Assembly: GCA_903894565.1 (NCBI GenBank)
Contig: CAITQP010000011.1
Location: 70,515-134,514, forward strand
Direction of reading: 5' to 3'
Source of the DNA: an uncultured bacterium
Lineage (GTDB): Bacteria > Patescibacteriota > Minisyncoccia > Phycocordibacterales > UBA9973
DNA: 64,000 bases
In this document: positions 8,761-59,682 of the stretch, piece by piece
How positions within the stretch are numbered: the stretch's first letter is position 1
Layout: each line of letters begins with the position of its first letter
The notes under the pieces: model-generated
Database searches by the model: none
Seen by the model: only the letters and a program-made list of their open reading frames with translations
Told to the model about the DNA's origin: nothing
Translations under genes and position numbers: made by a program

Positions 8761-9621
8761 TTGGTGATGAAAATAAATTACGCGCAACGAATCTCGGTTT
8801 GGTATATGACCGGAATGATTATTTTTTGGTTTTTCCTTCTTGCAACTCACCGAACATTTGGTAATTTGAATTATTTCTTTTCGTTTTTAATGGGACTGCT
8901 TCCTTTTTTTGGTGGTATCGTGGCAATGATGCGTGCGCGCGATTGGACGAGCATGAAAGGGTATGTGAGTCGAGGTGTATTCTTCCTCGGACTCGGTCTT
9001 TTCTGCTGGGGTTGTGGTGAATTGATTTGGTCTTACTATAATTTCTTTACCGGCGTGTCTGCTCCTTACCCATCATTCGCGGACCTTGGCTTTGCTCCAA
9101 GTGTATTTTTCTATTGTATCGGTGCTGTATATCTTGCACGTGCTGCAGGTGCTGACCTTGGACTTCGACGACGCTTTGCAACGCTATTCATGGTTGTCGT
9201 TCCAGTCATCATGTTCTTTTTTTCGTACTATTTCTTGGTTACGGTTGCTCGTCAGGGTGTTTTGCTTTCAAGCTCTGATTCGCCACTCAAGAATTTCTTT
9301 GATATTGCATATCCAATCGGTGACTTTATCAGTTTGACAGCGGCTGTTGTGATCTCTGGACTTTCTTTCCGCTTCATCATGAGCGAGTATCGCATTGCCA
9401 TCTTCTCAATATTGTCTGGTCTCGCGGTAATGTTCGTTGCGGACTCTATTTTTTCGTACACCACAAGTCTCGCGACATATTTCAACGGCGACCTTGGTGA
9501 CATCATTTTCACCATCGCACTTTTCCTCCTGACATTTGGTGTTCTTGGTTTTTGTGGAGAGACGGATGAGTCTGCTTTAAATGAAAAACCAACGTTCTTC
9601 CGTTCGCTCTGGCACGTATAA
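8761..9621 (+). CDS. polytopic membrane protein, paralog A of 11486-12343
   Basis: Multiple TM helices. Shared blocks SAPYPSFADLGFAPSVFFYCIGAVYLA and FDIAYPIGDF with paralog B. Confidence 0.55.
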   Translation: MVMKINYAQRISVWYMTGMIIFWFFLLATHRTFGNLNYFFSFLMGLLPFFGGIVAMMRARDWTSMKGYVSRGVFFLGLGLFCWGCGELIWSYYNFFTGVSAPYPSFADLGFAPSVFFYCIGAVYLARAAGADLGLRRRFATLFMVVVPVIMFFFSYYFLVTVARQGVLLSSSDSPLKNFFDIAYPIGDFISLTAAVVISGLSFRFIMSEYRIAIFSILSGLAVMFVADSIFSYTTSLATYFNGDLGDIIFTIALFLLTFGVLGFCGETDESALNEKPTFFRSLWHV

Positions 9622-58307: not shown

Positions 58308-59351
58308 CTATATTTTTTCCCACGGAGCACCGCTATGAATAAAATGTCCGTGTGCTGCAACATTTTTGTACACTGCATTTCGGAGTCCAAGTTTTTCAAT
58401 AATTGCTTTTGGCGCGAAATCAAATCGTCCTTGTATTACACTTGAAATATCTTCGCCATTTTCATTGGTGACTGTTAGCATTACAGGTTCTGCTACACCG
58501 ATAGCGTACGCGACAGAGACGAGCGCTTCTTTTGCTACTCCTTCGCGCACAAGTGCTTTTGCAACAAAGCGCGCCATGTAGGCAGCAGAGCGATCTACTT
58601 TGGTCGCATCTTTACCACTGAAACACCCACCGCCGTGCGGAATAATTCCCCCGTACGTATCAACCATGATCTTTCTTCCGGTGAGTCCTGTGTCAGCATC
58701 AAATCCACCAATCGTGAACATGCCACTTGGATTAATAATCACTCTCGCCGTTTGAAGCGTGTCGCCGAAAATTGGTTTGAGTACGACTTCACGAATTCCA
58801 TTTTCGATCTCCGTATGCGTTACTTGTTCGGTGTGCTGTACACTCACCACAATCGTATCGACGACATCATCTACCATCGTGATCTGAGTTTTGCCATCAG
58901 GAAGAAGCCACGGAAGACGCGCACTGGTTTCTGGTTTGTCGAGCAATTCGACGATACGTGCAGCATACACAACACCGCGCGGAAGCATCTCAGGAGTTTC
59001 GTTCGTAGCGAATCCGTACATGATCCCTTGATCCCCCGCTCCATCATGATTCACCCCTTCCGCAATCTCTGGTGACTGCTTCACAATCTGCGTGCGAATT
59101 TCGATGTCGCTCGTGAATCCAATCGAGCGATACACATCACGCGCAATGCTCTCGACATCGACATATGCAGTCGAAGTAATCTCGCCACCGAGTGTGAGCA
59201 GTCCATGCGCTCCAAATGCCTCAATCGCAACACGTGCAAATGGATCTTGTGCAAGATGTGCATCAAGAATTGCATCTGAAATTTGATCGCACACTTTGTC
59301 AGGGTGACCGCGACGAACATTTTCGACTGTGTATTTTTTTGGTATATACAT
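58308..59351 (-). CDS. metK: S-adenosylmethionine synthetase
   Basis: MYIPKKYTVENVRRGHPDKVCDQISDAILDA, GGGAFSGKD, full-length match. The upstream 52 codons of the track ORF are riboswitch, not coding. Confidence 0.9.
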   Translation of the reverse strand: MYIPKKYTVENVRRGHPDKVCDQISDAILDAHLAQDPFARVAIEAFGAHGLLTLGGEITSTAYVDVESIARDVYRSIGFTSDIEIRTQIVKQSPEIAEGVNHDGAGDQGIMYGFATNETPEMLPRGVVYAARIVELLDKPETSARLPWLLPDGKTQITMVDDVVDTIVVSVQHTEQVTHTEIENGIREVVLKPIFGDTLQTARVIINPSGMFTIGGFDADTGLTGRKIMVDTYGGIIPHGGGCFSGKDATKVDRSAAYMARFVAKALVREGVAKEALVSVAYAIGVAEPVMLTVTNENGEDISSVIQGRFDFAPKAIIEKLGLRNAVYKNVAAHGHFIHSGAPWEKI

Positions 59352-59370
59352 AAAGTTTAATAACAAATAG

Positions 59371-59510
59371 TAAGGAGAAGAATAAAAAAAATACTCTTCA
59401 CCCGACAGGTAAGAGTACGACGTGTATCTTCCTTTCGGAATTTGGATGAAGCACCTTGCACTCGGGTAGGTTGCTGGTGGGTCATTGAGCCAAATCTCTC
59501 GCCACACTCT
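59371..59510 (-). promoter_or_regulatory. SAM-I (S-box) riboswitch with intrinsic terminator, leader of metK
   Basis: Minus-strand sequence UGUAUCAAGAGUGUGGCGAGAGAUUUGGCUCAAUGACCCACCAGCAACC...AAGGUGCUUCAUCC..UUCCGAAAGGAAGAUACA matches the SAM-I P1-P4 core. It is followed by the UACUCUU/AAGAGUA hairpin plus U9. Confidence 0.75.
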
Positions 59511-59682
59511 TGATACAAACGATATTCAGTTGTATTGACACATTACCAGAACTCTCCTAAAAAAGCAAAAGCCCGACGCAGATAGGCTACGTCGGGACTC
59601 TTACTTTTTGTCGACCACTTATACATGTATTATACCTATATGTCTATACGATATCAAGCAAGCAGACTGTGGATTTTGTTTT

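Follow-up and report, generated by a model that had tools for sequence, protein, structure and literature searches.

Among the described SAM-I riboswitches, the closest counterparts of the element reported here are the metK S-box leaders (yitJ/metI-type) of Bacillus subtilis and the metF aptamer of Thermoanaerobacter tengcongensis (PDB 2GIS). In the classical S-box logic, SAM stabilizes P1 at the expense of the antiterminator, which allows the terminator to form and turns the gene off. A metK gene placed behind a terminator is the family's most typical context, and the aptamer we located on the minus strand of a 64-kb stretch of DNA (the window) agrees with it. As in SAM-I/S-box leaders (RF00162), a four-way junction of P1-P4, a K-turn in P2, a pseudoknot between the P2 loop and J3/4 and the binding core are combined with a location before metK and a terminator/antiterminator platform that shares the P1 3' strand. 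The 170 nt upstream of metK are very likely to form an S-box leader, consisting of a SAM-I aptamer and an intrinsic terminator, through which SAM would feed back on SAM synthetase.

The aptamer and the start of metK

Across the whole 64-kb window and all 4227 Rfam families, the sole gathering-level match was to RF00162 (SAM riboswitch, S-box leader), at 59421-59519 on the minus strand (48.7 bits against a gathering threshold of 44.4; E = 4e-8 for the 64-kb window), spanning model positions 1-108 of 108 and hence the full length of the model. The margin over the gathering threshold was 4 bits, whilst clade model R1, which we built from 12 compact aptamers and the canonical structure, scored the same aptamer at 92.5 bits. 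A permissive Rfam rescan of the leader region alone returned RF00162 again and otherwise nothing credible. The original prediction had recognized S-box elements in this sequence and had named the Rfam SAM-I model as the check; that search, run here, was significant and above the curated threshold, RF00162 matched end to end, and all of the elements listed were located in the window sequence. The proposal that these elements occupy the 156 nt downstream of a GTG at 59507 was upheld in substance and corrected in extent, as the aptamer reaches 12 nt 5' of that codon, which itself lies inside the 5' strand of P2.

The aptamer comprises P1 (59519-59512 with 59428-59421; UGUAUC/GAUACA), P2 including the K-turn (59507-59476; K-turn-type GA...AUGA), P3 (59475-59450; GCAACC/GGUGC) and P4 (59440-59429; a UUCC-GAAA-GGAA hairpin), all on the minus strand, and on the same strand the P2 loop (59493-59490, UUGG) forms the pseudoknot with J3/4 (59445-59442, CCAA). 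J1/2 AAGAG and J3/4 AUCC were both found in the window sequence, and the P1 UAUC/GAUA, J1/2 AGAG, P3 GCAACC/GGUGC and P2 K-turn GA motifs all agree with the Rfam consensus line. The P1, J1/2 and P3 motifs among these are what we take to be the SAM-pocket residues in PDB 2GIS, and UAUC...GAUA, J1/2 AAGAG, GCAACC and GGUGC did not vary across the clade alignment. As aligned by Rfam, three inner P3 pairs are non-canonical; with the P3 register shifted by one base they become U-G, A-U and C-G, closing a CCGA loop. Unconstrained thermodynamic folding of the leader did not recover the aptamer fold, and such folding commonly misses ligand-dependent folds that contain a pseudoknot. On every feature testable in silico, the element belongs to the SAM-I family and is predicted to bind SAM.

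The 3' end of the aptamer lies 70 nt before the metK ATG, on the same strand. As originally described, the six-frame ORF at this locus (58308-59507) runs for 399 codons from a GTG start and exceeds the conserved MetK N-terminus by 52 codons. Every alignment to PDB MetK structures (n = 45; best E against solved structures 7e-94) began at ORF residue 56-59, equivalent to E. coli MetK residue 4-6, and the N-terminal, central and C-terminal MetK domains of Pfam (PF00438, PF02772 and PF02773) occurred in order, all above cut-off, with the N-terminal domain starting at ORF residue 59. Neither the PDB MetK alignments nor the Pfam search detected homology in the 52-codon extension. In the two closest relatives, L001 (94% MetK identity) and L002 (72%), the ATG equivalent to 59351 is the first start codon to follow the preceding stop, and because the ORFs start there the extension is closed in both. 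Given where MetK homology begins and where the relatives' ORFs start, the extension (59352-59507, minus strand) is an ORF-calling artefact, a non-coding leader occupied by the aptamer and the terminator. The start proposed at 59351 is supported by both homology and ORF boundaries: as judged from these, metK is an S-adenosylmethionine synthetase gene of 347 aa (58308-59351, minus strand), and the 399-aa ORF appears to be a reading-frame accident.

No Shine-Dalgarno (SD) motif precedes 59351. Of 50 long window ORFs, only 5 have an SD-like motif, and a metK without one is normal for window genes; a survey has found that the anti-SD motif of 16S rRNA is often missing in Parcubacteria (PMC9297842). 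Exact-sequence look-ups in public gene calls found neither the 347-aa nor the 399-aa product. Annotation of metK should read 347 aa from 59351, accompanied by RF00162 as a feature at 59421-59519; a caller that always chooses the longest ORF would hide the riboswitch.

Conservation and covariation among relatives

The best MetK relatives among one-genome-per-species GTDB contigs were nearly all metagenome-assembled genomes, labelled as Patescibacteria, Paceibacterota, Nomurabacteria, Saccharibacteria and similar, and the window genome is Patescibacteria-like. No closer relatives were found in the metagenome scan, where the best reached 62%. Gene order atpD-atpC-metK was common to the window, L001 and L002. 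An aptamer upstream of metK was detected in 22 of 80 genome relatives at the Rfam gathering threshold and in 42 of them with clade model R1, which also detected one in 46 of 80 metagenome relatives; pooled, 88 of 160 loci carried the aptamer before metK, all of these counts being lower bounds because the upstream sequence at some loci was too short for scoring. Every match among relatives lay on the metK strand and immediately upstream of metK.

In an alignment of 43 sequences, which was fitted to the model and hence leans towards the structure, 88.1% of cells held standard pairs compared with 77.1% in shuffles, and 23 of the 28 pairs had changes on both sides. None of 500 shuffles reached any of five covariation measures, and pairing fell to 32-45% when the partners were slid by 1-3 columns. 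RNAalifold applied to a plain MAFFT alignment, not model-fitted, recovered P2, P3 and P4 with compensatory changes. The P2-loop/J3/4 pseudoknot, a type of pairing that a covariance model cannot encode and that therefore lay outside it, was 98.1% paired across the clade, with compensatory changes in all four pairs. Its first pair is U-A in the window, in place of the commonest form, C-G. When the window is compared with L002, double substitutions preserve pairing in P2 (U-A to C-G), in the pseudoknot (U-A to A-U) and in P3 (C-G to G-C), and aptamer differences among the window, L001 and L002 were either confined to loops or compensatory.

Expression platform and predicted switching

An intrinsic terminator follows the aptamer at 59384-59418 on the minus strand (-11.2 kcal/mol). 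Its stem of 12 pairs with one bulge (59418-59391) is formed by GUACUCUUACCU (59418-59407) and GGGUGAAGAGUAU (59403-59391), and UACUCUU...AAGAGUA directly abuts a U-run of eight (59391-59384). The original prediction had identified this stem correctly but had counted nine U, where the uninterrupted run is eight; its claim that metK is regulated by transcription termination gains support from homology, the ORF boundaries of the two relatives, clade-wide covariation and the terminator/antiterminator pair, SAM binding and termination themselves being predictions. In prefix folding, the terminator formed in co-transcriptional prefixes of 130-135 nt; L001 has an identical terminator and L002 a conserved one. 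A simple terminator scan missed it because of the bulge and the small number of G-C pairs (four) in an AU-rich stem. Two automatic terminator pickers took a downstream alternative hairpin in the window and L001, and the terminator energy was evaluated by hand.

The competing structure is a predicted antiterminator at 59401-59439 on the minus strand (ViennaRNA, -13.7 to -13.8 kcal/mol), in which the 3' strands of P4 and P1 (UCCGAAAGGAAGAUAC, 59439-59424) pair with the 5' arm and loop of the terminator (GUACUCUUACCUGUCGGG). In silico it is incompatible both with P1/P4 and with the terminator, the P1 3' strand being the shared element, and it appears in the free minimum-energy structures of the leader and of the read-through RNA. 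Across the clade, a hairpin with a T-run occurs soon after the aptamer in 38 of 43 leaders, and in all 38 of these terminators the 5' arm is the pyrimidine-rich one (binomial p = 7e-12, a value overstated since the sequences are related), which is what complementarity to the purine-rich 3' end of the aptamer, GGGAAAGAU, requires. Measured against shuffles, antiterminator complementarity was not significant in the 38 leaders (mean z -0.68), whose arms are short, pyrimidine-rich and of low complexity. A few relatives (L013 2966-3001, L066 451-465 and L078 2760-2789) have a very short gap between aptamer and metK and no T-run terminator, with a hairpin right at the ATG in L013, which hints at a different kind of expression platform in some SAM-I leaders of Patescibacteria.

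The most likely promoter of the metK leader, judged by its motifs, lies at 59533-59568 on the minus strand and combines a -35 TTGCTT (59568-59563) with an extended -10 TGG-TAATGT (59548-59540), which would place the transcription start near 59533, 14 nt before P1. A consensus promoter scan did not detect it, the consensus match being weak (7/12). TGGTA is shared unchanged by the window, L001 and L002, the equivalent in L002 is TTGCAT-17-TATCAT, and TGG-type extended -10 boxes recur across the window.

Taken together, these parts point to the following predicted sequence of events. At high SAM, the ligand would bind a pocket formed by P1, J1/2 and P3 and lock P1, P4 and the pseudoknot; the locked aptamer would leave the terminator 5' arm free to pair with its 3' arm, and RNA polymerase would stop at the U8 tract before metK. 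At low SAM, the P4 and P1 3' strands would instead pair with the terminator 5' arm and loop, the resulting antiterminator would block the terminator, and metK would be transcribed and MetK translated from the ATG at 59351. Termination at the U-run is expected to depend on GUACUCUU.

Beyond the U-run, read-through RNA can form an alternative downstream hairpin (59370-59406, minus strand; -11.3 to -12.1 kcal/mol) from the terminator 3' arm (GGGUGAAGAGUA), a U7 loop and a third arm, UAUUCUUCUCC (59383-59373), which is a near-copy of the terminator 5' arm and sits at the same place in L001 and L002. The hairpin is available only after read-through and may lock the read-through RNA in this form. 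A double change (A-U to G-C) maintains the pairing in L002, where it is stronger than the terminator (-12.8 versus -9.3). We also observed a long-range 12-bp helix on the minus strand between J1/2-P2 (59511-59500) and 59422-59411, pairing AAGAGUGUGGCG with CGUCGUACUCUU at -12.6 kcal/mol, which dominates the unconstrained minimum-energy fold of the leader and competes with P2. In such folds it is a possible second means of sequestering the terminator 5' arm that would also disrupt P2.

Both of these structures bear on a reading in which the aptamer is real and acts on translation or mRNA stability instead of termination, through the hairpin 59406-59370 or the helix 59511-59500/59422-59411. In a genome without SD sequences, accessibility of the start site could matter, and the re-pairing of the third arm with the terminator 3' arm, its compensatory change in L002 and the competition of the long-range helix with P2 would all fit such control. 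We nevertheless regard it as improbable, because the 30 nt before the metK ATG stay unpaired in every predicted conformer, so that nothing is sequestered there, and because eight U come immediately after the terminator hairpin, with the same layout in 38 of 43 relatives; a hairpin with a U-run is the defining signature of an intrinsic terminator. Control by termination is the reading we retain for the leader.

Two further readings would deny the riboswitch a function altogether, and we give both very little credence. One holds that the 399-aa ORF is a true gene translated from the GTG at 59507 and that the riboswitch-like match is coincidental or vestigial; its frame is indeed open from 59507 in the window, and the Rfam score is near threshold. 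Against this, the extension is free of homology, the frame is closed in L002 and even in L001 with its 94% identical MetK, the sequence is explained by RNA-level covariation rather than codon-level conservation, and the U8 terminator would fall inside the coding sequence. The other, just as hard to credit, treats the aptamer as a relic in decay that has lost SAM binding, metK being expressed constitutively. Although a score only 4 bits over threshold and an irregular inner P3 could be taken as signs of decay, all ligand-contact positions are intact, changes among the window, L001 and L002 are confined to loops or compensatory, and the terminator and antiterminator are both intact. A functional S-box leader acting on metK remains our preferred interpretation.

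The upstream unit, the host and the relation to known riboswitches

Between the atpC stop (59683) and the riboswitch lies a further unit (59557-59657, minus strand; L001 2690-2800, L002 2650-2770). It opens with a promoter-like TTGATA-17-TATAAT (59657-59629; 11/12 consensus match), for which L002 has TTTACA-18-TATACT at the same position. A 16-nt block, GTATAAGTGGTCGACA (59621-59606), begins at the predicted transcription start and is identical in L002 despite a MetK identity of 72%. It is followed by a G+C-rich hairpin of 10 bp (core stem 59596-59572) and a T-run; the hairpin carries one compensatory change in L002, and this terminator was detected by the simple scan. The U-tract pairs back with an A/G-rich tract, giving an overall fold of -30.5 kcal/mol. 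The unit is single-copy in the window, about as conserved in L002 as the riboswitch and absent from the other 158 related loci; it matched no Rfam family, with a best E of 0.75 in permissive mode. It may be the terminator of the atp operon or a small RNA gene of about 60 nt.

Two other interpretations of the unit were considered and rejected. A small ORF, MYKWSTKSKSPDVAYLRRAFAFLGEFW, with an ATG at 59625 has an open frame in both the window and L002, but in L001 its ATG reads AGG, and as this codon lies only 3 nt past the -10 box and upstream of the likely transcription start, an RNA or DNA element is more likely. A role as a trans- or cis-acting antiterminator, through pairing of GUAAGAGU with the 5' arm of the metK terminator, was set aside since 12% and 20% of shuffles equalled the duplex energies and since the A/G-rich segment pairs with the unit's own U-tract instead. 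We consider it rather unlikely that the upstream unit is a gene for an sRNA of about 60 nt with a single-stranded 5' block, GUAUAAGUGGUCGACA, and that a three-arm terminator also locks the ON state after read-through; both parts draw on three sequences (window, L001 and L002) that represent two independent lineages. If true, this CPR bacterium would have in the upstream unit a trans-acting sRNA that has yet to be described.

Across the whole window, a -10-like hexamer (at least 5/6 matches to TATAAT, often with TGG or TGC before it) precedes 15 of 48 long ATG-ORFs. Its end lies 4-9 nt upstream of the ATG, and the distances peak sharply at 6 nt; genes with such leaderless-type promoters include those at 8767 (+), 16442 (-), 20823 (+), 36427 (+) and 40148 (-). 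This pattern suggests that leaderless mRNAs are widespread in the genome and, as the genome appears to rely heavily on them, the long leader of metK would be exceptional.

The riboswitch is notable only for its host, an ultrasmall bacterium of the Patescibacteria (CPR). To our knowledge Patescibacteria have few recognizable regulators, yet over half of the sampled relatives keep a predicted SAM-sensing RNA before metK. In a genome without SD use and with many apparently leaderless mRNAs, the predicted switch acts via termination, not by masking a ribosome site. Our literature search did not find natural SAM riboswitches described in CPR bacteria, which does not by itself establish an absence of reports. 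A 2024 review calls for CPR genetic tools and mentions synthetic riboswitches only, as tools for the future (PMC11665869); the element could provide a native ligand-responsive part for such tools in these organisms.

Set against the described families, the element is real but ordinary, and nothing known about SAM-I riboswitches is altered by it. SAM-IV (RF00634) and SAM-I/IV (RF01725), which belong to the same Rfam clan (CL00012), recognize the same ligand with a similar binding core but lack the SAM-I-type P4 and pseudoknot arrangement, and RF00162 prevailed in clan competition as the best model for the window aptamer. Compared with other SAM-I/S-box leaders, the locus differs in its Patescibacteria-like, SD-less host, in a P4 reduced to a minimal 4-bp GAAA hairpin that abuts P1, in the U-A rather than C-G first pair of its pseudoknot, and in an additional arm, the third, which lies beyond the U-run and is able to re-pair with the 3' arm of the terminator.
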